A stretch of DNA of 20,012 nucleotides, from IMG/VR virus record IMGVR_UViG_3300044716_000631; one strand, 5' to 3'. Below, piece by piece: positions 1,778 through 20,012 of this stretch (positions are counted from its first letter, which is position 1; each line of letters opens with the position of its first letter). A program made the translations under genes and the position numbers. Origin of the DNA: a virus. Its lineage: Duplodnaviria; Heunggongvirae; Uroviricota; Caudoviricetes. The notes beneath the pieces are model-generated. The model made no database searches, was not told the DNA's origin, and saw nothing but the letters and a program-made list of their open reading frames with translations.

Positions 1778-1805
1778 ATTATACCATATCTATTTATAAT
1801 GTCAA
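1778..1805 (-). promoter_or_regulatory. sigma70-type promoter upstream of gp3
   Basis: Minus strand: TTGACA (1805-1800), 16 nt, TATAAT (1783-1778), with TG extended -10; intergenic, just after the gp23 terminator. Confidence 0.75.
1791..1798 (-). promoter_or_regulatory. T4-type late promoter (TATAAATA) for gp3
   Basis: Exact T4 gp55 consensus TATAAATA, 38 nt upstream of the gp3 ATG. Confidence 0.75.
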
Positions 1806-1881: not shown

Positions 1882-3237
1882 TTACATAAGGTTCGAGATA
1901 AGAACGCGACGGTAGTACTTGTTCGAATCCTGCTCAAGAGTAGCTGTTGAATCAGCAGCTGTAGTACCCTTAGCGAATGGATTTGGAGCCATGCCGTAGC
2001 GAGTCTTGAAACCGATCTTTGGCTGGAATGAACCTGGATCAACTGCACGAACCATTTGTAGTGGAACGTATGGGCAGTAGAAGAGACCAGCGTCATATGG
2101 GTTTGAACCCTTATAACCAACTACAAGGTAGTTAGTGCCAGCATATGGATCGATGTAAACCTTGATGCGACCATTGATAACACCAGCAAATGTATTGCCT
2201 GTGTCGTCGATGTTCAGCGAGTTTGTGTTAAGTGCTGGAGCATAGTCCAGAACACCAGCCATCTGAAGTGCAGAAGCTACGTCTGACGAACAGATGATGA
2301 TGTTACCCTTACCACGACGAGTTTGCTTAGCAATCTGGTTGCATTCACGCTCGATTTGGAATAGGAGACCCTTGAACTTTTCAACCATCCAACGACCGTT
2401 TGAGTCGGTGTCAAGATCGAAGAAACCAGCTGTTGTTGTGCCGTCAGCAGCACCGCGCTCAGCAGTGATGATGATTGAGCGAACAACTTCGCGGTTGATT
2501 TCTGCAAGAATTTCAGCTGACAGAATGTTTGAAAGTTCTGTTTCAGCGTCAAGGCCGTGAATTGCCTTAAGATCTTGTGCAAGCTCAAGAGTGTATTCAG
2601 CCTTGAGAGCGCGTGTCTTAGCAGCAACAGTTACCTTCTCGATTGAGAAGCCCATTTCTGGGAATACGTAAGTGCTGTTTGCACCAAGAAGTTCGCCCGA
2701 ACCAAGCAGAAGACCCATTGTGTAGTTATAGGTCGAGTTGCCTGCGTTGTTCGAAGAACCAGGAGCTGTACCAACAGTGTTAGCACCAACAGCAGTTGCT
2801 GAACCAGCACCTGTGTTAGCAGCATTAACGCCAGCGCCTAGACGCGAAGCGTGGCCTGTGTTTGCTTCGCCGTAGAATGCTTCATCACCAAGAGCGGTTG
2901 AGTTGGCATACTTCGAACGCATTGCAAAGATAAGACCTGTTGGGCCTGACATTGGCTGAACGCCGCAGATGTCATAAGCGATCAGGTTTGGCATCGAACG
3001 ACGAACCAGCGAGATAAGCACTGGGTCGAAGTTTGCAGCGTTGCCTGCAGTGTTTACGTGTGTAGCTTCACCAAGAAGGTGCTGCTGTCCACCCTGAGAT
3101 GCTGACTCACGAAGAGCAGCTTCAGTGTTTTCTAGAATTTGTGCGGTTACATAACGCTTGTGTGCGCTACCGATCTCTGGGAGGTCAGTGTGCTCAAGCA
3201 CTGGCTTCCACTTGTTTTGTAGTTCCTCAGCTAACAT
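1882..3237 (-). CDS. gp23: Major capsid protein (T4 gp23 family)
   Basis: 451 aa: KWKPVL, FDPVLISLVRRSMPNLIAYDICGVQPMSGPTGLIFAMRS, EMGFSIEKVTV.AKTRALKAEYTLELAQDLKAIHGLDAE, YCPYVPLQM, FQPKIGFKTRYG. Probable gp21 cleavage at LLGE|A. Confidence 0.99.
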   Translation of the reverse strand: MLAEELQNKWKPVLEHTDLPEIGSAHKRYVTAQILENTEAALRESASQGGQQHLLGEATHVNTAGNAANFDPVLISLVRRSMPNLIAYDICGVQPMSGPTGLIFAMRSKYANSTALGDEAFYGEANTGHASRLGAGVNAANTGAGSATAVGANTVGTAPGSSNNAGNSTYNYTMGLLLGSGELLGANSTYVFPEMGFSIEKVTVAAKTRALKAEYTLELAQDLKAIHGLDAETELSNILSAEILAEINREVVRSIIITAERGAADGTTTAGFFDLDTDSNGRWMVEKFKGLLFQIERECNQIAKQTRRGKGNIIICSSDVASALQMAGVLDYAPALNTNSLNIDDTGNTFAGVINGRIKVYIDPYAGTNYLVVGYKGSNPYDAGLFYCPYVPLQMVRAVDPGSFQPKIGFKTRYGMAPNPFAKGTTAADSTATLEQDSNKYYRRVLISNLM

Positions 3238-3275
3238 TTTATTCTCCCTTTACCTTTCTGGGCATTTGGTATTTT

Positions 3276-3283
3276 TATTTATT
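3276..3283 (-). promoter_or_regulatory. Late promoter-like AATAAATA upstream of gp23
   Basis: One mismatch to TATAAATA; overlaps the gp22 TAA stop; same motif recurs before other late genes. Confidence 0.6.
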
Positions 3284-4262
3284 ACTTTGCGTTTCTTGAA
3301 ATTGATGCTACATAGTGGGCCATATGAGCTGGTACTTCTACCGGCTGATCTACACCATTTTCAGCTTCTTCAGTAACGACACCAGTTGAGACTTCCTTCT
3401 TTTCAGAGAAGTACTTGTCCTTGATGATGTTTAGCTTCTTTGCATATGTTTCAGCAGAGCTGAAGTCAATGCCTTCTGCTAGAGTGCGAAGCTTTTCAAC
3501 CTGAGTGGCTGCAAGTCCTTCACTTACTTCGTCGAATGTTGCTTCCTTGGTTGCTTCATCAAGAATTGCTTGAAGCTCAAGTTGCTTATTCACGGATTCG
3601 TCGAGCTTTTCTTCTAGCTCGTCGACTTGTGCCTGAAGCTCTCCGAGAACGTCGAGCTTTTCGTCAGGTACATTAATGTAGCTTTCTGCAAATAGGTTAC
3701 GTAGACCTTCCATGAAGTCTTCGGTAACATTTGTGCGGATTGAAGCTTCGATCGCAAGTTTGTTTTCTTCGATCCACTGCTCCACTACGTAATCAAGATA
3801 TTGATCGACCTTTTCGGTCATCTCTTCTTGAATGGCAACTACAGCTTCATCAAGCTTAGTTGCAAACTCTTCTTCTAGGCGAACGGTTTCAAGGTTCGAG
3901 CGAGCCGAAATAGCTGCTTCGAAGATTGTTGAAACTCTTTCTTTGAACTCTTCAGAAAGATCTTCGCCGCTGAACATTTCAGCAACGTCTTCCTTCATAG
4001 CGCCAAGTGTCGCTGCTGGCATCTGGCCAAGAGCCGGACCGCCACCAGGAGCTGTTGCCGAAGGAACGTTCTCAACGCCCAGTTTCTTGATCGAATCGTT
4101 AAAGAAGTGAGATAGATCCTCACCCTTTAGCTGAGCTAGCAACGAAGTAAATGTGGCTAGCATCTCTGTACGAGTTGGATTTGGCTTCAGTGTTTCTGAA
4201 GCTGCCGATTCATCGAGATTGTTTTCATTCTCAACGATATCAGTTAGTTCCTTATCTGACAT
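3282..4262 (-). CDS. gp22: Prohead core scaffolding protein (T4 gp22 family)
   Basis: 326 aa acidic coiled-coil: LSEEFKERVSTIFEAA, VDQYLDYVVEQW, F.EGLRNLFAE.YI.VP, EKLRTLAE; lies between gp21 and gp23; TAAGGAG RBS. Confidence 0.93.
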   Translation of the reverse strand: MSDKELTDIVENENNLDESAASETLKPNPTRTEMLATFTSLLAQLKGEDLSHFFNDSIKKLGVENVPSATAPGGGPALGQMPAATLGAMKEDVAEMFSGEDLSEEFKERVSTIFEAAISARSNLETVRLEEEFATKLDEAVVAIQEEMTEKVDQYLDYVVEQWIEENKLAIEASIRTNVTEDFMEGLRNLFAESYINVPDEKLDVLGELQAQVDELEEKLDESVNKQLELQAILDEATKEATFDEVSEGLAATQVEKLRTLAEGIDFSSAETYAKKLNIIKDKYFSEKKEVSTGVVTEEAENGVDQPVEVPAHMAHYVASISRNAK

Positions 4263-4287
4263 TTTACACTCCTTAGTGAATTTAATT

Positions 4288-4295
4288 TATTTATT
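4288..4295 (-). promoter_or_regulatory. Late promoter-like AATAAATA upstream of gp22
   Basis: Intergenic, 4 nt after the gp21 stop and upstream of the gp22 RBS. Confidence 0.6.
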
Positions 4296-4299
4296 TGAT

Positions 4300-4971
4300 T
4301 CAGAATTTCGAAATTTCGTTGAGAAAATTCTCAAAGATCTTAAATTTCTTGGCTTCCAGGTCTCTAGAAGATACGGCTTTTTCAATTGTCTGAACAGTTT
4401 GCTCAGCAACTTGAGTTTTCTTGGCAATCAGCAATTCATTTTCCCAGATCCACTCTACGCCTTCCATGATACCATTTACAAAGGCATCAGGAGCAGAAGG
4501 ATCCGCTACAATGTCAGCAGCTGTTGCTAGATAGAAATCGTCTTGTACTTCGTTGATTCCTTCTTTGTTGAGCTTTAGTGAGCCCATACCACGAGAAGAA
4601 ACACCGAGCTTTACGCCTTCAGAAACAAGACCCTTGGCAATGTTACCAAATGGAGTATCCATTATCTTGGCACGACCAATGAAATTTGTACCTTCTTGAC
4701 GAAGATTTGTAATCAGGTGAGAAACACGATCTAGATTAATCTGTGGACCTTCTGGGTGACCGAGTTCACCGAGTGCTCTACCTGACTTCACGTATGATTC
4801 GTTGTAGCGTTCTACTTCCTTGGCAAGAGTCTCAACTGGATACATACGTCCGTTGCGATTCTTGATGCCACCTTGAAGGAACACACCTTCGATGAATACG
4901 TTCTTCTTACCGTCTTCACGAGCTTCGGTAATCGTTCTTAGGTCTTCAAAGACTTCTGTAATGAGTTTCAT
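4300..4971 (-). CDS. gp21: Prohead maturation protease (T4 gp21 family)
   Basis: MKLITE, IEGVFLQ...NRNGRMYP, ALGELGHP (His), LGVSSRGMGS (Ser), DIVADPSAPDAFV. Confidence 0.97.
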   Translation of the reverse strand: MKLITEVFEDLRTITEAREDGKKNVFIEGVFLQGGIKNRNGRMYPVETLAKEVERYNESYVKSGRALGELGHPEGPQINLDRVSHLITNLRQEGTNFIGRAKIMDTPFGNIAKGLVSEGVKLGVSSRGMGSLKLNKEGINEVQDDFYLATAADIVADPSAPDAFVNGIMEGVEWIWENELLIAKKTQVAEQTVQTIEKAVSSRDLEAKKFKIFENFLNEISKF

Positions 4972-4980
4972 CTTTTTACC

Positions 4981-5379
4981 TTAACTATTATTGTATTCTG
5001 AAACGAATGTACCGACCTTCTGAACTTCAAGAAGGACGTAACCATTTGCCGTACCAACAAACTCTACAGTGAGGTTTGCAGTTTGACCAACAGTCAGAGC
5101 CATACCGCAACCGGCATAATCCTTATAACCGGTTGAGTCATAGATAGCAACTGGAGTTGTTCCACGCTTAATGACTGCGTAACCAGCTGGATCGATACCC
5201 CAGAATGCCTGTGCAATATAAGCACCTGACAGTGTTTCATCACTTACAGCAAGACATGCAGATGTAGCATCTACGTTTGTAGTTGTGCTATTGCCAGATA
5301 CCTTGATGGTTGTATTCGCAACCGAAACATGAATAGTAGCAGCAGTGTTTTTCTTATTTGATACGAATGATACGGCCAT
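4981..5379 (-). CDS. Hypothetical 132-aa beta-rich protein in the head cluster
   Basis: TAATG-coupled to the upstream head gene, GAGGTG RBS, alternating beta-strand pattern; function not recognised. Confidence 0.75.
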   Translation of the reverse strand: MAVSFVSNKKNTAATIHVSVANTTIKVSGNSTTTNVDATSACLAVSDETLSGAYIAQAFWGIDPAGYAVIKRGTTPVAIYDSTGYKDYAGCGMALTVGQTANLTVEFVGTANGYVLLEVQKVGTFVSEYNNS

Positions 5380-6791
5380 TATTCACCTCTATGACTAATT
5401 GAGAAGTCGAGCATTGATTCAACACCTTCTGGTGTTTCACATGCTTCTAGAAACTTCTTTTGGTTGCCTTCATTTAATTTATCAAAAACAGAAAGCATGG
5501 TACGACGATGTGTTTCTGTCAGATCACCAAGAAGATCAGCAAGCTTTTCTTCCTTGCGAAGTGGCTTACCACCACGTTCTGCAGTTAGCTTAGCAGCAAT
5601 CGCCATAGCACGACGCTTGTCTTGTGACTTACCTTTGAATTGTGGAGCATCAGACTTTTGGAAATCCTTGACTACGGTTCCCATTGAAGCCGTATCCATG
5701 TTTAGCTTTTCTTCAATCGCTTCAACTTCTTCTTTAGTAAGCTTATCAGTAGCTCTTTTGATACCTGTTTCGCGGTTCTTACGAAGACGCTCTGCTTTAT
5801 CATAAGTATGTTGGTTAAATCTTTTACCGAAGTAACCGGTTTCACTGTCACCTTGGTATGCAGCGATTTTTGTCAGTGGAACATTCTTTGGTGACATTAC
5901 ATTCTTTGGTTGCTCAGCACCAGATGCTTTCTTGATATAAGAACCCATAGTTTTCTTTGAGAGTTCGTCGATCTGCTCAGCTTCTTCGTTAGCAATCTTA
6001 CGAACGGTATTCTTGCGATTGTAATACTTGCGAGCATCATCGGCAGTTTCACCGCTCTTCTTGAAAAGACCAGGAAGTTGCTTTACTGCTTTTTTAGCAT
6101 AAGAATCTTTTGTAGTCGCGGAGATCTCATCGATCTGTTCTTCATCAAGCATATTCTTACCAAGCTTGGTACGAACTGCCTTGGCAAGCTTTGATACATC
6201 AACGCCAAAATCTTTAGCAGCAGAACTAACATGGCTCTTGCGAATGTTATCACCATAACGCTTTTGCAGATGAGCAACAATCTTTGCAGTCTCATCGATC
6301 TGCTCAGCTTCTTCACCGTACATCTTATTAAGTGCACGGTTAACACCAACTGTGCGATTCTGCATCTTCTTGAGTTGCCCGTCATAACCCATCTTTGGCT
6401 TACGCGCACTAAAGTCTGCAGCGGCTTTCTTTGTATATGCACCCATTGTGCTCTTTGAAAGCTCATCTAGCTCTTCAGCTTCCTCAGCAACCTTTTTCTT
6501 CTTACGCAGAAGGTGGAAGTCATGAGCATCTACCTTGCCATTCTTATTGGCATCGATCTTGTGCTGACTACCCTTGAGTTCTTCGTAGACCTTTTCGTCT
6601 TCACCTGGGTTGTAACCATGGCGATCCTTACGGCGATCAGCCATCTTTACCTTGGAACCCTTAAAGACTTCGTCGTCATTGCCATTGCGATCTGCATGCT
6701 TGGCAACAACGTGCTTATCCACGAACTTTTGTTCGTCAGGATTCTTAACTTTCAGGTAACCTTCTAGGAATTGATTAAGCGTCTTCGCCAT
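5379..6791 (-). CDS. Prohead core / internal head polyprotein at the gene-68 position, made of repeated basic modules
   Basis: 470 aa; N-terminus MAKTLNQFLE resembles a capsid-targeting sequence; acidic linkers EEAEELDE/EEAEQIDE/DEEQIDE/EEAEQIDE/EEVEAIEE separate Lys/Arg-rich blocks. The gp68 link is positional only. Confidence 0.75.
   Translation of the reverse strand: MAKTLNQFLEGYLKVKNPDEQKFVDKHVVAKHADRNGNDDEVFKGSKVKMADRRKDRHGYNPGEDEKVYEELKGSQHKIDANKNGKVDAHDFHLLRKKKKVAEEAEELDELSKSTMGAYTKKAAADFSARKPKMGYDGQLKKMQNRTVGVNRALNKMYGEEAEQIDETAKIVAHLQKRYGDNIRKSHVSSAAKDFGVDVSKLAKAVRTKLGKNMLDEEQIDEISATTKDSYAKKAVKQLPGLFKKSGETADDARKYYNRKNTVRKIANEEAEQIDELSKKTMGSYIKKASGAEQPKNVMSPKNVPLTKIAAYQGDSETGYFGKRFNQHTYDKAERLRKNRETGIKRATDKLTKEEVEAIEEKLNMDTASMGTVVKDFQKSDAPQFKGKSQDKRRAMAIAAKLTAERGGKPLRKEEKLADLLGDLTETHRRTMLSVFDKLNEGNQKKFLEACETPEGVESMLDFSISHRGE
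5968..6314. repeat. Exact 20-nt direct repeat TCGATCTGCTCAGCTTCTTC (5968-5987 and 6295-6314) encoding the EEAEQID linker
   Basis: Both copies read directly; degenerate copies near 6128-6144 and 6463-6488. Confidence 0.85.
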
Positions 6792-7104
6792 CGTCTTCGA
6801 ATCCTTCTAAATCTTCGTCTTCTAATTCTTCTTCTTCGTCGTCTTCCCAGTCGATGTCTTCAAGATCTTCTTCATCGATTTCTAAATCTTCGTCATCGAG
6901 ATCTAGATCTTTGTCGTCAAGATCGAAATCATCTTCATCGTCGACAGTATCTTCTTCAGTTGCAAACATGCCTTGTGCGACAGAGATTCTCATGTCATCA
7001 ATAGCTGCACTTGCTTTCTGACCCATGATATCATCAAATGCAGAAGCGAACTTTGTCGGCTGCTGATTCATAGAAAAGTTGATAAGATCATCAATATCGG
7101 CCAT
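6775..7104 (-). CDS. gp67: Prohead core protein (T4 gp67-like)
   Basis: Start moved from 7137 to the ATG at 7104 (GGAGG RBS); 109 aa with helical N-half (FASAFDDIMGQKASAAID) and D/E-rich tail; directly downstream of the portal. Confidence 0.8.
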   Translation of the reverse strand: MADIDDLINFSMNQQPTKFASAFDDIMGQKASAAIDDMRISVAQGMFATEEDTVDDEDDFDLDDKDLDLDDEDLEIDEEDLEDIDWEDDEEEELEDEDLEGFEDDGEDA

Positions 7105-7124
7105 AGTTTCCTCCAAATTTTTAT

Positions 7125-7132
7125 TATTTATA
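7125..7132 (-). promoter_or_regulatory. T4-type late promoter TATAAATA for the gp67 operon
   Basis: Exact consensus, 1 nt after the portal TGA. Confidence 0.8.
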
Positions 7133-7133
7133 A

Positions 7134-8777
7134 TCACGCTGGTTTCTTAACTAGATCTGGAACCTTAGGAAGAGAAGGAACTTTTGCCGTCTTTCCTGTG
7201 TCTGGTCCTAGAGCTCCACTTGTATCTTCTGGTCCTGGAGCCTCCATTGGCTGGCCATCTGGTCCCATTTCAACCGGTGGATTATATTGTGGATTTTCTT
7301 GTTCTTCAACGATTTGCTCGTCAATTTCCTTCATGTCTTCTTCAGTCTGATACAGAACATTACGACGTACCCATTCGTGTGAGTAGTACTTGCCTGTATA
7401 GTCATCAATATCACGAAGCATTGAGATACGATCACGAAGAATTTCAGTATTTCTTAATTCAGCAAAGTGGTTATCTTCTGAATATTCATACTTAAAGTTA
7501 GTTCTAAATTCTTGCCAATCTTCACTGGTAATAACACCCTTGAGGATAAGTTGCTTCTCAAGAATCTTATTAAAGAGTTCTGAGAACTTACCACGAAGGC
7601 GAGTAATAAACTTAGCAAACTTAACTTCATCACGTGAAACTTCAGTAGCACGACCAAAGCTATAGTTTTGTTCTGGATCAAGACGAGTAATTGGAACGTT
7701 CAACGACTTATAAAGCTTACGTTGGAAGTAAACCACATCATCCATTTGGCCAAGGTTTTGACCACCAGGAAGAGTTGTAATTTCTGTACCTTTACCACCT
7801 TCACGACGTGGTAGCCAAAAATCTTCAAGCATTGTCATGTGCTTACGGTCGTCACGAATTTCACCAGTCTGAGCATCGTAAACTACGCGGTTCTTAAAGC
7901 GAGTCATAATATCACGAAGATATTGCTCAGCTTTCATCTTTGGTAGGTTACCAACATCAATGTAGAAAATACGACGTTCTGGAGCACGAGAAATACGATA
8001 GATAACCAGTGAGTCTTCCATAGACTTTAGCTGGTTGAGTGGCTTGATTGCCTTTTGCAGGTAACCAATCACCATATCACCACCGACATTTACTAGTCCA
8101 GATGATGTATTGACAACGGAATCTACAGCAATACGAATGCCCTGTGACGCAGGATCGTTATAAGTAGATCCTTGTGTAGGTGCTTTAGCGAATCCTTTAT
8201 CATTATAGATATAGAATTCTTCAGCAGTCTTATTGATAATTACGTTAGTATTCTTATTCGCCTTGACTCTCTTCTGAGTCTTAATCTTACGAATCTTACG
8301 CGGATCAACGTATCTTAATTCTTTGATACCTTCACGCGGTGCTTTTTCATCGATGATAGCATGATAGTAAAGTCTACCATCAACATACCATTTACGAAAG
8401 ATTTCATATGCGTGTTGGTTAAATTCAAGAAGTTCGAGAGTATTATCAAACTCTTCTAGAATCATCTTCTTGATATTTTCTGGTTGTTCTAGATCGTCAA
8501 GGTTCAGAGATACGATCTCTTTCTTGGGATCCATTACAATAGCTTCATTGACAATATCGTCAACTGCCATTTCAATATCTGGATGCATAGAGATTTCACG
8601 GTACTTGCTGACAAGTTCCGCTTCGTTTCTTACTGCACCTTCAAGATCTACGTATTGGCCGTATGCGCCACCTTCGGAAACGACAAGTGCACCATCTTCT
8701 TCCAGTTTTGGAGCAAAAGATGGTAACTCTTCTTGTGGTTTCTTACGAACAATTTCAAAACCAAATAACTCGGCCAT
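7134..8777 (-). CDS. gp20: Portal vertex protein (T4 gp20 family)
   Basis: Start moved to the ATG at 8777 (MAELFGFEI; AGGAG RBS). Motifs: FRKWYVDGRLYYH, YRISRAPERRIFYIDVGNLPKMKAEQYL, EDFWLPRREGGKGTEITTLPGGQNLG, ISRDE-like VSRDEVKF. Confidence 0.98.
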   Translation of the reverse strand: MAELFGFEIVRKKPQEELPSFAPKLEEDGALVVSEGGAYGQYVDLEGAVRNEAELVSKYREISMHPDIEMAVDDIVNEAIVMDPKKEIVSLNLDDLEQPENIKKMILEEFDNTLELLEFNQHAYEIFRKWYVDGRLYYHAIIDEKAPREGIKELRYVDPRKIRKIKTQKRVKANKNTNVIINKTAEEFYIYNDKGFAKAPTQGSTYNDPASQGIRIAVDSVVNTSSGLVNVGGDMVIGYLQKAIKPLNQLKSMEDSLVIYRISRAPERRIFYIDVGNLPKMKAEQYLRDIMTRFKNRVVYDAQTGEIRDDRKHMTMLEDFWLPRREGGKGTEITTLPGGQNLGQMDDVVYFQRKLYKSLNVPITRLDPEQNYSFGRATEVSRDEVKFAKFITRLRGKFSELFNKILEKQLILKGVITSEDWQEFRTNFKYEYSEDNHFAELRNTEILRDRISMLRDIDDYTGKYYSHEWVRRNVLYQTEEDMKEIDEQIVEEQENPQYNPPVEMGPDGQPMEAPGPEDTSGALGPDTGKTAKVPSLPKVPDLVKKPA

Positions 8778-11873: not shown

Positions 11874-11881
11874 TATTTATA
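11874..11881 (-). promoter_or_regulatory. T4-type late promoter TATAAATA for gp18
   Basis: Exact consensus overlapping the last codon and TAA of gp17. Confidence 0.8.
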
Positions 11882-14747: not shown

Positions 14748-15475
14748 TATGCGTTCCCTTCACTAAATGGATCGATTTGAGTCCAGTCTAGAATGCTATC
14801 ACCTTCAGTTTCAAACTCTGTATTATCTTCAAAAGGATCTCTTGCTTGTTCTTCAAAGTTATAACCACCTTGAACAATTTGATATCCATCTTGGCTGGTA
14901 ATAATAAAGTTATCTTGAGTTAGAATAGCATACTCTGATGCATCAAGTGAAAGATTGGTTTCAATACTATCAATTGCATCGATACCAGTATTGAATCTTT
15001 CTGAGCTATATTCAAACATTTCACAAACCAGATCATACATCTGGATTGCACCCATTTGATAGAATACTGGATTCTTGTTTACATACTTGATAACAAGCAA
15101 ACGATCGAGCATTGGAATATAAATGAGATCGCCTTCTTGTGGACGATCGATCATTTCAATATTACCAATTTCATTCATGAAGTTACGAACAGAGACTGTG
15201 AGAGTCATCTGATCACGAATTTCTAGATTAAACTTAGATAAGAAGTTACCATCACCTTCGTAGCTATCAAAGTTACGAATGTAAAGATCGATGTAATAAG
15301 CAGTCTTGTATTCTGAAATTGTATCTTCACCATAGATATCATCTTTGGCTACCAATGTTCTAGGACAATAGTACATGTCATGGCCATAGATTTTGATAGA
15401 CTCGAGTACGAGATCTTCAATCAAAACCTGTTCTTGGCTATTTGTAAAGTTATTGAAATAGAAATTGGTAGTCAA
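14747..15475 (-). CDS. gp14: Neck protein (T4 gp14 family), TTG start
   Basis: FNNFTNSQEQ.LIEDLV.ESIKIYG.D.YY.PR, FLSKF.LEIRD, RPQEGDLIYIP, FEYSSE, DW...DPFSE. Confidence 0.93.
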   Translation of the reverse strand: MTTNFYFNNFTNSQEQVLIEDLVLESIKIYGHDMYYCPRTLVAKDDIYGEDTISEYKTAYYIDLYIRNFDSYEGDGNFLSKFNLEIRDQMTLTVSVRNFMNEIGNIEMIDRPQEGDLIYIPMLDRLLVIKYVNKNPVFYQMGAIQMYDLVCEMFEYSSERFNTGIDAIDSIETNLSLDASEYAILTQDNFIITSQDGYQIVQGGYNFEEQARDPFEDNTEFETEGDSILDWTQIDPFSEGNA

Positions 15476-15479
15476 GATC

Positions 15480-16223
15480 TTATCCGATCATATCAAGAAC
15501 TGGAAGAGAATACGATGAGATCATCTCGTCTTCCATTCTTCTTAATTCTTCCGTAGCGTCGTCATAGATCTTTTCGCCATTGAACTGTACACCACCTGGT
15601 AAAGACATACCAGTAAACTTAGTCAGGTTAGAACCCCACTGTCTCTTGATCTGCGCAGTTGCATAATTCTGAAGCCAACGATCATTCCATGCATCTGTCC
15701 ATGTTTCAGGATTCACAACTTCGTATGCTTCGACAAGCAGGAACGTACCTGGTGGAACTGTATTCCAGTCCATATCGACATGGAGTCTGTCTTTATGGCG
15801 TTGGTAACGAATTGGTTGTTGGCCCACAAGAAGCTCTGTCACAAGCGCAAGATGTTCCATTACCATATAGTAAGGAACTAGCGAAACGTTTGTCAATGTA
15901 TAGAGGTCGTTCAGAGCGATCTGATAACGGATATTGAAAAGGTCGTCGGCACGAATCGATGGATCGCCAATTTGGAAAACTCGAACTGCGCCAATGATAT
16001 TCTCTGGAAGAGTGATGTACTTATTGGCTTTATCGTCAGCAGTCACTTGATGCTTGTAATAGATTCTATCCGAACCATCGAAGTGGTAGTCGTACCAATA
16101 ACGGATTGCTTCGTCGATACGATCATCTACCTGATCATCATCAACGTTAATCTCAATCACTGGCTTGCCTAGTTTACGTAAGCAATACTCTTTGAACTCA
16201 GCTTTAGTTGTTGGTGTAGCCAT
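15480..16223 (-). CDS. gp13: Neck / head-completion protein (T4 gp13 family)
   Basis: EFKEYCLRKLGKPVIEINVDDDQVDDRIDEA, WLQNYATAQIKRQWGSNLTKF.G..LPGGV.FNG; AGGA RBS. Confidence 0.95.
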   Translation of the reverse strand: MATPTTKAEFKEYCLRKLGKPVIEINVDDDQVDDRIDEAIRYWYDYHFDGSDRIYYKHQVTADDKANKYITLPENIIGAVRVFQIGDPSIRADDLFNIRYQIALNDLYTLTNVSLVPYYMVMEHLALVTELLVGQQPIRYQRHKDRLHVDMDWNTVPPGTFLLVEAYEVVNPETWTDAWNDRWLQNYATAQIKRQWGSNLTKFTGMSLPGGVQFNGEKIYDDATEELRRMEDEMISSYSLPVLDMIG

Positions 16224-16243
16224 CTCGACATCCTGTTTTTGTT

Positions 16244-16251
16244 TATTTATT
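16244..16251 (-). promoter_or_regulatory. Late promoter-like AATAAATA upstream of gp13
   Basis: Intergenic, 20 nt upstream of the gp13 ATG; same motif as other late genes. Confidence 0.6.
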
Positions 16252-16270
16252 TAAACCGGATACTTATCTT

Positions 16271-16423
16271 TTAGGCCGGAATCATAAGATATAACAAATA
16301 AAGACCAACAACAATTCTAAATATCCAACGTATAATAACAAACCCGACAAATATTTGAAACCATCTTTTGGTTTTTAAATAATTAAATTTGTGTAGCAGC
16401 CACGCTTTGGAGTTCTTTAGCAT
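16271..16423 (-). CDS. Small putative membrane protein, 50 aa
   Basis: MLKNSKAWLLHKFNYLKTKRWFQIFVGFVIIRWIFRIVVGLYLLYLMIPA: basic N-half, hydrophobic C-half; fills an otherwise empty gap. Start is uncertain (track starts at 16534); overlaps the Coq4-like gene by 41 nt; no clear RBS. Confidence 0.5.
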   Translation of the reverse strand: MLKNSKAWLLHKFNYLKTKRWFQIFVGFVIIRWIFRIVVGLYLLYLMIPA

Positions 16424-17219
16424 TTGGACCAACACAGACTTCATATTGTTTTTTCGCGACATCATCATATTCCGCTTTAAATAAATCCACGTGTTCAGTT
16501 CTATATCTTTGCTGGATCTCTCTATAGTTTTCAATATCCTGTTCAGATATATTTAGATGTTTTCTGACATCTTCAAGTGGCCATGCCATCATTGATTCCC
16601 AATCAACTGTTGGCAGCCAAGGAATCTTTTTTCCAACTTCTCTTGCTTCGTCGATAGATTTCTTGAACATGAGAGTTGTCTTGAGATTCTTTGTCGTTCT
16701 CAGTACCTTTAGATAACCAACCTTGATAAGAGCCTTAAATGAGTTACTATCGTTTTGTTCACGAACCGAGTGGAAAGCCGCAGCATGCGCTTCACCAAGA
16801 ATCATTCGGTTCCAGCCAATCACAAGGTGAGTGAAGTCATGGCATGCAAACATTCTTGATGAGAAGCGCTTTTTCTCTTCTGTATCAAGATGATCTTCCC
16901 ACTCTTTCTTATATCCCTCATAGAGATAACCAGCATAGAAGTCAAGGTTTTCATCCATAAACTCGAGGAACTCGCGGCCGAGCGATCCAGCAGGCAAACT
17001 AGCTAGGTATTCTCTATCACATTGAACGTCAATCAGTTCTCTTGGTTGTGAGAATACTTGGTGAGCAATCTCAGTATTGCAAAACTCTTTGAACTTACGA
17101 TCAAATGCAGTTTCATTAAACAGACGCTCTGCTTTATAGACGTTGCGCATTGGCTTGTCTTGAGGCGGCGCCTTTTGAAACTCTCTGAGTAACTTCATTG
17201 CTTTCAAATATCTAATCAT
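16383..17219 (-). CDS. Coq4-family metal-binding protein (ubiquinone biosynthesis COQ4-like)
   Basis: DREYLASLPAGSLGREFLEFM, HDFTH-x11-E (16791-16841, matching the COQ4 HDxxH-x11-E metal motif) and C-terminal DWESMMAWPLEDVRKHLNI, all characteristic of Coq4. ATGA-coupled to the upstream gene. Confidence 0.85.
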   Translation of the reverse strand: MIRYLKAMKLLREFQKAPPQDKPMRNVYKAERLFNETAFDRKFKEFCNTEIAHQVFSQPRELIDVQCDREYLASLPAGSLGREFLEFMDENLDFYAGYLYEGYKKEWEDHLDTEEKKRFSSRMFACHDFTHLVIGWNRMILGEAHAAAFHSVREQNDSNSFKALIKVGYLKVLRTTKNLKTTLMFKKSIDEAREVGKKIPWLPTVDWESMMAWPLEDVRKHLNISEQDIENYREIQQRYRTEHVDLFKAEYDDVAKKQYEVCVGPNAKELQSVAATQI

Positions 17220-17914
17220 TTGTAGTACCTCAGTATTCTGATTCTGTCAGACTGGTTATTTGTAATCTCTAATGATTCACTAGTAACTTTATATAGCTTC
17301 TTACTTAAGAGAACCTGTGTGCCTTTAAGAACATGATTTGAAAACATGAAATAACAGGTGTCGCACTCCGGTCTTGTAAGTGTAAGTGTTTCACCTGGCT
17401 CAATTGTTCTTTGTTCAAATGTGTAATTCGCATATGATCCGTTAAGTCTCGATACGCATACAAACTCTGATTCATCAGAAGTGGCAGTTAACTTAGCAAC
17501 TGGAGCTTTAGGATGCCATGGCATTGGCTGCCCAATCCAGTCAGCTATCTCGAAGTTAGCGTCAGCTAGAGTTAATGTAACTTTATCTGTACCTTTAGTA
17601 GCCACAAATGGAGTTGATACAGGCAGGTTAGCTATAAGATCAAGATAGTCATCAATCTCTTGTTCTGTTACATCGCCTTCTGGCCATTCCCACTCGAATG
17701 TGAATGAACCATTTAAAAATACGTGGCCGTTTGTGTTTTTGATGACGTTAGTTAGTGTAGGATGATCTTCTGGAACTCCACCAGAGTGGTGGACATTCTC
17801 AAGCGAGTCTCTGCCTAATACTTTGCCGTTATTATTTGGCCGAAAATGAGATACGTATAACTCATTGTCATATACACCAATGATTACAGGATTGTAATTA
17901 GAGAAGAAAGCCAT
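17216..17914 (-). CDS. Hypothetical 232-aa beta-rich protein, possibly a tandem cupin/jelly-roll fold
   Basis: Coupled at both ends (TAATG, ATGA). GHVFLNGSFTFEW and YTFEQRTIEPGETLTL...CYFMF...KLYKVTSESLEITN resemble cupin strands. The fold call is an inference. Confidence 0.7.
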   Translation of the reverse strand: MAFFSNYNPVIIGVYDNELYVSHFRPNNNGKVLGRDSLENVHHSGGVPEDHPTLTNVIKNTNGHVFLNGSFTFEWEWPEGDVTEQEIDDYLDLIANLPVSTPFVATKGTDKVTLTLADANFEIADWIGQPMPWHPKAPVAKLTATSDESEFVCVSRLNGSYANYTFEQRTIEPGETLTLTRPECDTCYFMFSNHVLKGTQVLLSKKLYKVTSESLEITNNQSDRIRILRYYK

Positions 17915-18039
17915 TAGATTTCCTCTGCCTCGGTTTCTGGCGTTGGAACATTAGGGTTGATAGTTTGAAGCATTATAACAGCCTCAGACGGCTGGGATGT
18001 TTCATCTTCTGCTTCCCAAGTTCTAATATCATCTTCCAT
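17914..18039 (-). CDS. Small acidic peptide, 41 aa (not in the ORF track)
   Basis: MEDDIRTWEAEDETSQPSEAVIMLQTINPNVPTPETEAEEI; AAGGA 7 nt before the ATG; its TAA overlaps the next ATG (TAATG); fills the gap exactly. Confidence 0.7.
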   Translation of the reverse strand: MEDDIRTWEAEDETSQPSEAVIMLQTINPNVPTPETEAEEI

Positions 18040-18049
18040 AAAAGTTTCC

Positions 18050-18595
18050 TTAGAACTTGACTAGACAGTGAATAGTTCCAGACGTAGGCATATCATAGGA
18101 TACCGATACGTAACTCATAGAAGCGTTTGCTTCTGTTATACTTTGCGAAGTATTAGCAAGCACAACTCGCGAGATGTTTGTACTTCTAAAGCCTGCAGTA
18201 ATTGCATCATTATTGGCGAGGATAACCGTATTGTCTTCGGCTAGACTCAGTGAAGTAGTGCCAGCGGGCCCATAAAGATTATCCTGTACTACACTAAACA
18301 AATAACTATTAGCAGCAAATTGAATTCTTCCAGCGCTTTCATCTGGACTAATAGTCCCATAATTGGTGATGCCATCAGCCCAACCATCTGTGTTTTGTGA
18401 TATTTTACCATCAGCGTAATAGCGAACTGGATCGATAGTAAATCCTTCAGCATTACGAAGATCGCTGAAAGAGATAGCGCCGGAACCCCCGTACCTGGTG
18501 CGCATCTCAGACATAGAGATAGAACTCGAGGTAGCCCGATTGATGTTCGTTCTCATGTCATTCATTGAAATCGCGCCAGATCCGGGGGTTGGCAT
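18050..18595 (-). CDS. Putative tail fibre tip / adhesin protein (gp38-like N-terminal attachment motif)
   Basis: N-terminus MPTPGSGAISMNDMRTNINR...SISMSEMR..YGGSGAISFSDL resembles the 'MxLPxSGxISxSD' motif of proteins encoded after fibre genes; beta-rich C-half; AGGA RBS. Confidence 0.6.
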   Translation of the reverse strand: MPTPGSGAISMNDMRTNINRATSSSISMSEMRTRYGGSGAISFSDLRNAEGFTIDPVRYYADGKISQNTDGWADGITNYGTISPDESAGRIQFAANSYLFSVVQDNLYGPAGTTSLSLAEDNTVILANNDAITAGFRSTNISRVVLANTSQSITEANASMSYVSVSYDMPTSGTIHCLVKF

Positions 18596-18598
18596 TGG

Positions 18599-18808
18599 TT
18601 ATCCTTGCGGTTGGCCCAGCTGTGCTTGAGCCTGCTGGAAGAGTTTTTTCAGGATAGGATCGACCACGCGGTGTGGAAGTTCCTGCAGTCCACCCATAAT
18701 AACATTCAATTCATTGACGTCTACAGTGAGTGTTACAGTAGGTGCCTGTTGAACCTGAGCCTGTTGGTTTTCAGCAAGCATTGGATCGAGTTCTGGATTA
18801 GTAGCCAT
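18599..18808 (-). CDS. Small tail-fibre-associated protein, 69 aa
   Basis: VTLTVDVNELNVIMGGLQELPHRVVDPILKKL resembles small helical proteins often encoded after phage fibre genes; AAGGAG RBS. Confidence 0.7.
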   Translation of the reverse strand: MATNPELDPMLAENQQAQVQQAPTVTLTVDVNELNVIMGGLQELPHRVVDPILKKLFQQAQAQLGQPQG

Positions 18809-18825
18809 GATATATTCTCCTTGAA

Positions 18826-19257
18826 TTATGTATTGGCAGTTGGGGTTGTGTTAGATGAAACAGTATTAGATACTGGTGTTGGAGTTGGTACAGTGTTTGA
18901 ACCTGGAGGTGCCCAAGGTAGAGCATCTGCATTGACTTCAACCATCGGACGAACGATAGCATCAATCTGCTTTTGGATTTGCTCATCGATGTGAGCTTTA
19001 TAACCAGGGTTACCATTTACCACATCCTGAATCCAACCAAGAACCTGAGCTTCAGTTAGATTTTCATATGTGGTAAAATTATCAGCGTCGACCTGATCTG
19101 GGTCAAATGGAGTTGCACCGTTGAACGTACCCGAATTATCGTCTTCGTCAGTTCCTGTGCATTCCCAATATGTTTGGACGATGATGTCATTAAGTTCTGC
19201 AGAAGGATCGTCCTGCTTCTTCAGACTCTTAATCTTCCAAGTATAAGTAAGTGCCAT
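18826..19257 (-). CDS. Tail-fibre-associated protein, possible assembly factor, 143 aa
   Basis: MALTYTWKI...VQTYWECTGTD...FTTYENLTEAQVLGW...LPW then a P/T/S/N-rich tail; GAGGA RBS; immediately after the fibre gene. Confidence 0.7.
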   Translation of the reverse strand: MALTYTWKIKSLKKQDDPSAELNDIIVQTYWECTGTDEDDNSGTFNGATPFDPDQVDADNFTTYENLTEAQVLGWIQDVVNGNPGYKAHIDEQIQKQIDAIVRPMVEVNADALPWAPPGSNTVPTPTPVSNTVSSNTTPTANT

Positions 19258-19259
19258 TT

Positions 19260-20012
19260 TTATTTATCCTCTTTGAGTGAGTTAATTTGTTGTTCTAGTC
19301 TATTTATATGTGTTTGTTGTTCCTTAATTGCTTCAATTAAGAGACCAACCATGTTGCCATAAGCTACGCTATAGTTGGTTTCTTCTGAACCAAGCACAAC
19401 TTCAGGAATTACTTCTATTACTTCCTGAGCGATTACACCCATCTGTCTTGTATTAGTATCTATACGTGTATATGTATAACCGTTTAATCTGCTTACCTTT
19501 TCAACAGCGTTGTCGATCTTGACAATATCTTTTTTCAAACGAGCATCTGAATACGCTGTGATGTTGTTAAGCATCGTCAGGTTACCAGACATATCCATTT
19601 GAAGTAGGTTAGCTGAAGCTGACCAACCACCAATTCTGAATACGTTGTCTGAATCAAGTCCCATATTAACAGCATATACACCGGCTCTATGGAATGCCAT
19701 TGTAGCGCCGGCAGATCCGCTTGAATACACTTGCAGCGGTGCATTCGTATCTGTAGTATTTCTATTAGCCTGGAAATACTGAACACCGGTCCATGTCGCA
19801 TTAAGGCCTACTAATGAATTCAATACGTGCTGAACCGAAGACTTTCTATAATAACCATCAAGACTACTATTAACAGTAATGAACTGCCCAATAGTCGGAT
19901 TTTCATTATTGCCAGTATTACTATTAATATAGTTCAGGAAAGTATAACCGTTTTCCTGTCGTGTTACAATTGTATTTGCACCAACTCCATTTGATGCCTG
20001 AAAACCATCAAG
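19260..20012 (-). CDS. Tail fibre protein C-terminus with peptidase S74 intramolecular chaperone (runs off the window end)
   Basis: The frame stays open from the track's TTG at 19823 to 20012 (LDGFQASNGVGANTIVTRQENGYTFLNYINSN...). Contains AY|SDARLKK (Ser at 19548-19550, Lys at +5), GVIAQEV..V.PEVV, SVAYGNMVGLLIEAIKE and a coiled coil. Confidence 0.93.
   Translation of the reverse strand, partial: LDGFQASNGVGANTIVTRQENGYTFLNYINSNTGNNENPTIGQFITVNSSLDGYYRKSSVQHVLNSLVGLNATWTGVQYFQANRNTTDTNAPLQVYSSGSAGATMAFHRAGVYAVNMGLDSDNVFRIGGWSASANLLQMDMSGNLTMLNNITAYSDARLKKDIVKIDNAVEKVSRLNGYTYTRIDTNTRQMGVIAQEVIEVIPEVVLGSEETNYSVAYGNMVGLLIEAIKEQQTHINRLEQQINSLKEDK

Follow-up and report, generated by a model that had tools for sequence, protein, structure and literature searches.

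An exchangeable five-gene cassette at the tail-fibre locus of uncultured T4-like phages encodes a Coq4-family protein and a predicted bicupin

In a 20,012-nucleotide stretch of DNA from an uncultured tailed phage (Caudoviricetes; IMG/VR record IMGVR_UViG_3300044716_000631), hereafter called the window, four genes encoding proteins of 41, 232, 278 and 50 amino acids (aa) span positions 16271-18039 on the minus strand. They lie directly downstream of a gene for a fibre-tip-like protein of 181 aa, and we show here that these five genes (p181, p41, p232, p278 and p50, each labelled by the length of its protein in amino acids, as are p143 and p69 below) are inherited and exchanged as one unit. An earlier note, made from the letters of this DNA alone, had proposed that the last four form a single late-expressed module. 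Their linkage was borne out by our comparisons; the unit itself comprises five genes, as p181 travels and is swapped with the other four. We lean, tentatively, towards interpreting it as an accessory cassette that is restricted to phages and belongs to the locus of the tail-fibre tip, namely a fibre-tip assembly or maturation module to which a membrane-held Coq4-type enzyme would be a lineage-specific addition.

The boundaries of the unit were defined by comparison with the nearest relative of the window, G001. The two are 96 % identical in DNA across window positions 15400-16253 and 98 % identical across 18593-19300, and between these flanks G001 carries approximately 5.8 kb of other genes in place of p181 to p50. 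Alignment of the DNA flanks places the replaced block at 16254..18592, and G001 gave no match to any of the five cassette profiles. The alternative cassette, which occupies the same site (L017, G001:C1:19500-29500, approximately 2345-7750, minus strand), encodes a Gly-rich tip protein of 257 aa, a CoA-binding, succinyl-CoA-ligase-like protein of 419 aa, a 2-oxoglutarate (2OG)-Fe(II) oxygenase and an S-adenosylmethionine (SAM) methyltransferase, together with a sulfotransferase-like protein of 300 aa and two unannotated proteins of 153 and 169 aa. Since the exchange covers exactly p181 to p50, the unit is one of five genes and is part of the fibre-tip locus. In another relative, L013, the neck protein gp13 is 98 % identical to that of the window, p181 is 50 % and p232 59 % identical, and the Coq4-like protein only 18 %. 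Judged from these alignments, the cassette is evolving in the manner of a host-range region, with p50 staying conserved.

Contigs gathered through homologues of p232 and p278 were screened with a profile for each of the five proteins. The order tip, peptide, bicupin, Coq4-like protein and membrane peptide, with the same overlaps, recurred in 13 uncultured T4-like lineages including that of the window, and bicupin identity across them falls to approximately 43 %. The lineages are the window with L001/L002; L003-L005; L006; L009/L010; L011; L012; L013; L014; L100/L101; L102; L110/L111; L112; and L113. Included in this count are L006, whose stretch begins within the bicupin gene so that tip and peptide lie outside it, and L100/L101, which have a different fibre-end gene and a peptide tail fused to a 148-aa protein. 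The co-occurrence in order of Coq4 homologues with the 232-, 41- and 50-aa genes, which the earlier note had suggested looking for, was therefore found. A random pile-up of unrelated moron genes, for which the earlier note had expected independent occurrence without conserved linkage, can be rejected because the linkage is conserved; the idea of one conserved, co-oriented and coupled late unit thus stands.

The surroundings of the cassette tie it to fibre genes. Between it and gp13, variable insertions are frequent and encode 2OG-Fe(II) oxygenases and sulfotransferase-like proteins. In the P0062 contig (L113), a giant fibre gene and genes for DUF7936 proteins come before the cassette, and gp25/gp6 baseplate genes, not gp13, come after it, so that the association is with fibre genes rather than with neck genes. 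Shorter or altered versions were also recovered, the alternatives for the fourth gene coming from loci sampled across 109 bicupin clusters. In L104, an SU10-like podovirus recognized by its SU10 capsid and adaptor families, a Peptidase_S74 tail fibre is followed by a 203-aa tip, a 35-aa peptide, the bicupin and the Coq4-like protein with 4-nt overlaps; this peptide is basic and lacks the p41-type tail. In L103, a marine siphovirus, a 1588-aa tail fibre (PHROG, E 1e-88) is followed by a 217-aa tip, a 73-aa protein ending in P-E-D-V-G-E-I, the bicupin and then an 89-aa membrane protein in place of the Coq4-like protein. The T4-like lineage L114-L120 encodes tip, peptide and bicupin, and next to them a protein of 232 aa that contains an HxH stretch of cupin-like appearance and has weak Pfam cupin matches below cut-off; in its member L117 the cassette is located between two collagen-like fibre genes. 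Finally, L105 has tip, bicupin and Coq4-like protein, with no peptide between tip and bicupin and no p50. Because the Coq4-like protein and p50 are replaced by a cupin-like protein in L114-L120 and by a membrane protein in L103, the constant core appears to consist of tip, peptide and bicupin, and the Coq4-like protein with p50 would be the usual, lineage-specific extension in T4-like phages.

Cultured phages provided no counterpart. Searches with tblastn of p278, p232, p50 and the bicupins of L103 and L104 against 50,697 isolate phage records yielded no meaningful match, and in the closest isolate by gp13, Stenotrophomonas phage DLP_6 (68 % identity), three unrelated hypothetical genes lie upstream of gp13. 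We found no paper linking Coq4 with phages. The statement in the earlier note that no characterised system has this make-up therefore agrees with what we found in PHROG, in the isolate records and in the literature searched.

All genes in this region of the window are on the minus strand, as determined by inspection of the open reading frames, and the order of transcription is fibre gene, p143, p69, p181, p41, p232, p278, p50, gp13, gp14 and gp15. The stop codon of p181 (18050..18595) is separated by 10 nt from the ATG of p41 (17914..18039) at 18039, and an AAGGA word overlaps that stop. The junction between p41 and p232 (17216..17914) is TAATG, with position 17914 as the common base; p232 and p278 (16383..17219) overlap by 4 nt, ATGA, at 17216-17219; and p278 and p50 (16271..16423, ATG at 16423) overlap by 41 nt at 16383-16423. 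The earlier description of four genes chained without slack was accurate at each of these junctions. On the evidence of these starts and stops, the last four genes are shown to be translationally coupled. The chaining is conserved rather than due to chance, because T[AG]ATG is kept at the junction of peptide and bicupin in 13 of 13 loci. In addition, the GAGGAA that encodes the two Glu residues of the p41 tail (17917-17926, minus strand) doubles as the Shine-Dalgarno sequence of p232 and is nearly invariant at the nucleotide level in the 13 loci, so that two constraints act on the same bases.

Upstream of p143 are two late-promoter-like words on the minus strand, TATAAATA at 19301-19308 and ATAAATA at 19261-19267. 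Exact TATAAATA words occur four times in the window (1791-1798, 7125-7132, 11874-11881 and 19301-19308), all on the minus, coding strand, compared with 0.85 expected. The T4-type word ATAAATA was not found on the minus strand between 16250 and 19261; the next one, at 16244..16250, is 21 nt upstream of the gp13 start; it belongs to the conserved flank and delimits the cassette on this side. Terminator-like sites were no more frequent than in shuffled sequence and none lay between genes. With no late-promoter word inside and no intergenic terminator, p143, p69, p181 and the four genes after it form one stretch bounded by late promoters, and the words upstream of p143 are likely to be the start of a transcription unit that runs through the cassette. 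These results are in line with two further points of the earlier note, that no promoter or terminator separates the four genes from the fibre-tip genes and that they end just before the gp13 late promoter.

At the far end of the coupled series, p50 was left uncalled by gene callers in every metagenome locus compared; its start at ATG 16423 lines up with that of 8 out of 10 relatives. The core of p50, K-T-K-R-W-F-Q-I-F-L/V-G ... R-W-x-F-R-I, does not vary even among loci in which the Coq4-like proteins share only 18 % identity, and the 24 core codons show 483 synonymous versus 217 non-synonymous codon differences in 10 loci. For the last 7 codons of p41 the corresponding figures are 191 and 85 in 13 loci. 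By these counts, p41 and p50 are real genes under purifying selection. The p50 protein has a basic N-terminus (8 K/R, no D/E) and then a single hydrophobic segment, whose mean Kyte-Doolittle value over 19 residues reaches up to 2.1; this upholds the earlier designation as a membrane peptide; it is probably tail-anchored with its basic N-terminus in the cytoplasm. No signal peptide with a lipobox Cys was seen in the four proteins, as p50 and p41 contain no Cys and p232 and p278 have no N-terminal hydrophobic signal.

The p41 peptide is acidic (12 D/E, 1 K/R) and conserves W8, D12-E13-T14 and a C-terminus of the form P-E-T-x-A-E-E-I/L. Endings of this type also terminate larger proteins: a 148-aa protein ending in P-D-T-I-A-E-E-I (L100:217-663, plus strand) and the 73-aa protein of L103 (5780-6001, plus strand). 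The peptide can thus also exist as one domain within a larger polypeptide. The purifying selection on this tail, its persistence in fused forms and the location of the peptide gene directly 5' of two larger proteins would suit a peptide-tailoring system, similar to the ribosomally synthesized and post-translationally modified peptides (RiPPs) or to peptide-derived cofactors. p41 would be the precursor, its C-terminus would be processed by the bicupin, and it would be decarboxylated or otherwise modified by the Coq4-like protein, COQ4 being a decarboxylase (PMC7615680). We nevertheless judge this quite unlikely. The cassette has no Pfam or PHROG match to radical SAM, YcaO, lanthipeptide, RiPP recognition element or protease families; the peptide of L104 is basic and lacks the tail; L105 has no peptide at this position; and the Glu codons of the tail double as a ribosome-binding site.

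The third gene of the coupled series, p278, belongs to the family suggested in the earlier note. It matched the Pfam Coq4 family PF05019 at 53.8 bits (cut-off 22.9, E 2e-14), and profile searches retrieved the structures 3MSQ (E 1.3e-12) and 6E12 (E 1.6e-12) over approximately 200 residues. Divergent cassette alleles scored from 15.7 to 24.2 bits against PF05019. The metal motif is intact in p278 (H127-D128-x-x-H131-x11-E143, or HDxxH-x11-E), and H127, D128, H131 and E143 are invariant in 26 aligned sequences, including relatives at 18 % identity. p278 also has a C-terminal extension of approximately 50 residues. The nearest homologues found outside such cassettes, which are probably cellular, share only approximately 30 % identity with it, and a scan of IMG/VR with the Coq4 alignment returned close relatives only. 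No fused forms of p278 were found among longer proteins, which is weak evidence. On this profile and motif evidence, p278 is a genuine, new and very divergent member of the Coq4 family. It resembles human and yeast COQ4, Nostoc Alr8543 (6E12) and 3MSQ in its significant homology, length class and HDxxH-x11-E motif, but differs from them in being phage-encoded, in having no quinone-pathway gene beside it and in its coupling to a bicupin and two small peptides, one of them acidic and the other a membrane peptide.

A cyanobacterial COQ4 homologue has a hydrophobic tunnel by its metal site. COQ4 has been described as a Zn-dependent decarboxylase of the C1 carboxyl of prenylated precursors (PMC7615680) or as removing this carboxyl by oxidative decarboxylation (10.1101/2023.11.13.566839), and the eukaryotic protein can stand in for UbiD/UbiH function in E. 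coli (10.1101/2023.11.13.566839). Given a genuine Coq4 family member with an intact motif, p278 might thus be an auxiliary metabolic gene, which would carry out C1 decarboxylation of ubiquinone precursors and so sustain or redirect host respiration. The distribution of the gene makes this very improbable. The Coq4-like gene occurs solely at fibre loci, and does so in two morphotypes (T4-like myoviruses, SU10-like podovirus). It is swapped with the tip gene, lies in a late transcription unit and gives way to unrelated genes in some lineages; even where gp13 is 98 % identical, its own identity drops to 18 %. In the window its neighbours are fibre and neck genes, with no ubi/coq gene next to it. 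Bacterial Coq4 homologues were found in 361 stretches of species-representative genomes, with 26-35 % identity among the best 80; around these best 80, no tip, peptide or bicupin homologue adjoined the Coq4 gene and no neighbour was strongly conserved, in gene calls that were crude and recovered 36 of the 80 Coq4 genes. Late expression, position in the fibre locus, replacement by unrelated genes and the lack of tip, peptide and bicupin homologues beside the bacterial Coq4 genes together argue against a plain quinone auxiliary gene. Four roles had been suggested in the earlier note, namely modification of virion or fibre proteins, superinfection exclusion, action on the quinone pool and a RiPP-like unit. 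Action on the quinone pool fits the comparative data least.

Sequence searches with p232 returned no Pfam, PHROG or PDB match. Its structure model (predicted local distance difference test, pLDDT, 92) was matched to the E. coli pirin YhhW (Z 9.0, root-mean-square deviation 4.0, 157 residues), to human pirin (Z 8.4) and to AerE and BacB (Z approximately 8), and Foldseek retrieved bicupins at E 5e-5 to 1e-3. From the model we are confident that p232 is predicted correctly as a bicupin fold of two double-stranded beta-helix barrels, so that the earlier designation as cupin-like holds at the level of the fold. A protein of phage P-HM2 came up as a weak look-alike in BFVD (TM 0.55) and was rejected as a relative, nothing comparable being present upstream of P-HM2 gp13. 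p232 shares with pirin-type bicupins, AerE and BacB the two-domain double-stranded beta-helix, at Z 8-9 over approximately 155-165 residues; it is unlike them in its 7-11 % sequence identity, in having no Pfam cupin match and in lacking family-wide metal ligands. An exhaustive profile search gave 109 clusters at 50 % identity, nearly all full-length hits being approximately 220-250 aa long. p232 represents a new bicupin family. H42, H43, H51, H64 and E74 are conserved among its close relatives, at a spacing that is non-canonical for cupin motifs. In the alignment of 69 family members, only C153 and G69 are invariant or nearly so; the canonical His/Glu motifs are unrecognisable and no metal ligands are conserved. 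p232 is thus probably non-catalytic, and of the two candidate metalloenzymes named in the earlier note, p278 keeps its metal site family-wide and p232 does not.

The absence of family-wide catalytic residues, the constant position of the bicupin as second gene after the tip gene and the exchangeability of the fourth gene could also mean that the bicupin, with the peptide, is a structural distal fibre subunit or adhesin, or a chaperone like T4 gp38 or lambda Tfa, and that the Coq4-like protein and p50 are an unrelated pair residing beside it. Jelly-roll or cupin-like domains do occur in viral receptor-binding proteins, and p232 matched the PM2 spike P1 weakly (Z 7.0). The cassette resembles gp38 and Tfa in its position directly after the fibre or tip gene, its late expression and its co-variation with the tip. 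p41 and p232 differ from them in having no sequence or Pfam/PHROG profile similarity, and the cassette has extra enzyme and membrane components. We regard this explanation as unlikely, since the ATGA coupling of bicupin and Coq4-like gene and the overlap of the latter with p50 are kept over 13 lineages and through an allele change to 18 % identity, which argues for one functional unit. Nor is there similarity to any PHROG tail family.

We infer that p181 is a tip protein from its sequence and position. Its N-terminus contains three repeats of the type SGAIS-x-D/E-hydrophobic-R, and in 12 T4-like lineages the gene before the peptide is a homologue of p181. The alternative tips of G001, L103, L104 and L117 have an N-terminus of the p181 kind, and the G001 tip matches PHROG tail-fibre families. 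A Protein Atlas feature search with p232 and p181 gave no usable match. The tips of the window, L103, L104, L105, L117 and G001 are otherwise unrelated and have in common the N-terminal repeat S/T-G-x-I-S/T-hydrophobic-x-D/N-hydrophobic-R/Y-G, which corresponds to no Pfam family and occurs in myo-, podo- and siphoviruses; it looks like a common attachment module. The tip of L117 (3842-4861, plus strand) consists of an N-terminal SGQIS-repeat domain, a run of 10 Gly, Cys-Cys-Phe and a Hint domain (PF01079, 31.7 bits, above cut-off). Its Gly/Cys-Phe site resembles the Gly|Cys-Phe cleavage or ligation site of Hedgehog-like proteins. A poly-Gly run joined to a Hint autoprocessing domain indicates that C-terminal processing of the tip exists in this gene family.

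Upstream of p181 lie the fibre gene (open at 20012 and ending at 19260), p143 (18826..19257), which encodes a DUF7936 protein (PF25590, 67 bits), and p69 (18599..18808), a small conserved flank gene; downstream is gp13 (15480-16223), all on the minus strand. p69 is 98.6 % and p143 99 % identical in G001, which is without the cassette, and in L012, L013, L105 and the P0062 contig a p143 homologue likewise lies 5' of the cassette. p143 is a conserved flank gene of the fibre locus, outside the swapped cassette. The gene after the cassette in L012 (3817-4680, plus strand) encodes a 288-aa protein with an alanine-zipper domain as in the Lpp-like outer-membrane lipoproteins (PF11839, 29.1 bits). Island genes near the cassettes encode prolyl 4-hydroxylase (P4H)-like 2OG oxygenases, a GT25/PLOD-like glycosyltransferase, methyltransferases and sulfotransferase-like proteins, all of them families that tailor proteins or glycans, and collagen-like fibres adjoin them. 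At L105:1-1485 and in the genes upstream of L009/L011, specifically, a GT25/PLOD-like glycosyltransferase, P4H-like 2OG-Fe(II) oxygenases and GT2-methyltransferase fusions lie beside collagen-like (GPQ-repeat) fibre genes. The presence of collagen-type tailoring enzymes at fibre loci suggests hydroxylation or glycosylation of phage fibres.

The assembly or maturation module that we tentatively favour would work as follows. The five proteins would be made together, late and in coupled amounts, and tip, peptide and bicupin would act jointly on the fibre tip, as assembly factors, adaptors or distal subunits. Because no catalytic residues are conserved family-wide, the bicupin would most likely be a binding, chaperone or adaptor subunit, possibly together with the peptide. 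In the T4-like lineage this core would be extended by a Coq4-type metal enzyme with an intact site, held by p50 at the cytoplasmic face of the inner membrane. There the enzyme may act as a decarboxylase or hydrolase would, on some hydrophobic compound that resembles a prenyl group or a lipid, and while fibres are being assembled its product would help to mature or modify the tip or a ligand that the tip carries. This interpretation draws support from the five-gene linkage, the association with fibre genes, the exact swap, the hypervariability and the lack of a metal triad in the bicupin, as well as from the invariant Coq4 motif and the strong purifying selection on p50. Tailoring of fibre proteins is supported in turn by the 2OG oxygenases and GT25/PLOD-like enzyme that adjoin collagen-like fibres and by the Hint domain of one tip.

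Several points weigh against it. Contact of the cassette proteins with the tip, or their entry into the virion, would have to be assumed; the structure model of p181 is poor (pLDDT 44); and T4 fibre assembly is not known to need a membrane anchor. Conservation of the p41 tail is partly explained by the ribosome-binding site of p232, and four His and one Glu persist among close bicupin relatives, so an enzymatic role is possible in the p232 clade. All Coq4 proteins characterised so far work on prenylated benzoate lipids rather than on proteins (10.1101/2023.11.13.566839; PMC7615680). Complex prediction with p41, p278 and p232 gave a score of 0.47, and a control with p278 replaced scored higher, at 0.57, so that this result speaks neither for nor against the module.

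The cassette could instead be a receptor or envelope module matched to the tip. The membrane-held Coq4-like protein and the bicupin would alter a lipid precursor, polyprenyl-linked or other, from which the surface structure recognized by the tip is made, resulting in less re-adsorption to infected cells or debris or in superinfection exclusion. The logic would be analogous to that of T5 Llp, a receptor-blocking lipoprotein encoded beside the receptor-binding protein. In both, accessory genes would be linked to, and exchanged with, the receptor-binding gene; the cassette differs in having no lipoprotein signal, in comprising several genes, in being probably cytoplasmic or inner-membrane and in being late. 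That tip and enzymes are swapped together, that the cassette is as hypervariable as the tip, that p50 would place the module at the cytoplasmic face of the membrane and that the bicupin of the siphovirus L103 is followed by a membrane protein would all fit. We consider this possible, if rather doubtful: expression from a late promoter leaves little time for envelope remodelling, no protein has a signal peptide or lipobox and p50 has no Cys, the conserved core contains no glycosyl- or acyltransferase, and peptide and bicupin are apparently cytoplasmic.

The assembly or maturation module can be extended to a wider proposal, which is speculative and which we hold with more doubt than the module itself. 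The cassettes may represent an undescribed tip-maturation system across morphotypes, in which peptide and bicupin couple a receptor-binding tip to exchangeable tailoring enzymes, so that the end of the virion which recognizes the host would acquire a chemical modification, perhaps a lipid or a group of prenyl origin. The enzyme would be a membrane-tethered Coq4-type decarboxylase here and, elsewhere, cupins, Hint domains or 2OG oxygenases.

As a system, the combination of tip, acidic peptide, bicupin, Coq4-type enzyme and membrane peptide has no characterised counterpart that we could find. Many uncultured aquatic phages, spanning at least three morphotypes, conserve the cassette. Three of its gene families lack any annotation, and it places an enzyme of the Coq4 family, hitherto met only in the biosynthesis of quinones, in the context of virion assembly. 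Since fibre tips set the host range of phages, accessory genes swapped along with the tip probably affect adsorption, exclusion or the range of hosts. Once solved, the chemistry of the cassette could reveal a new kind of virion or receptor modification and could give a first function for a Coq4 homologue of the prokaryote world. It could also explain the enzyme islands, comprising 2OG oxygenases and glycosyl-, methyl- and sulfotransferases, that are found in the fibre loci of marine and freshwater T4-like phages.

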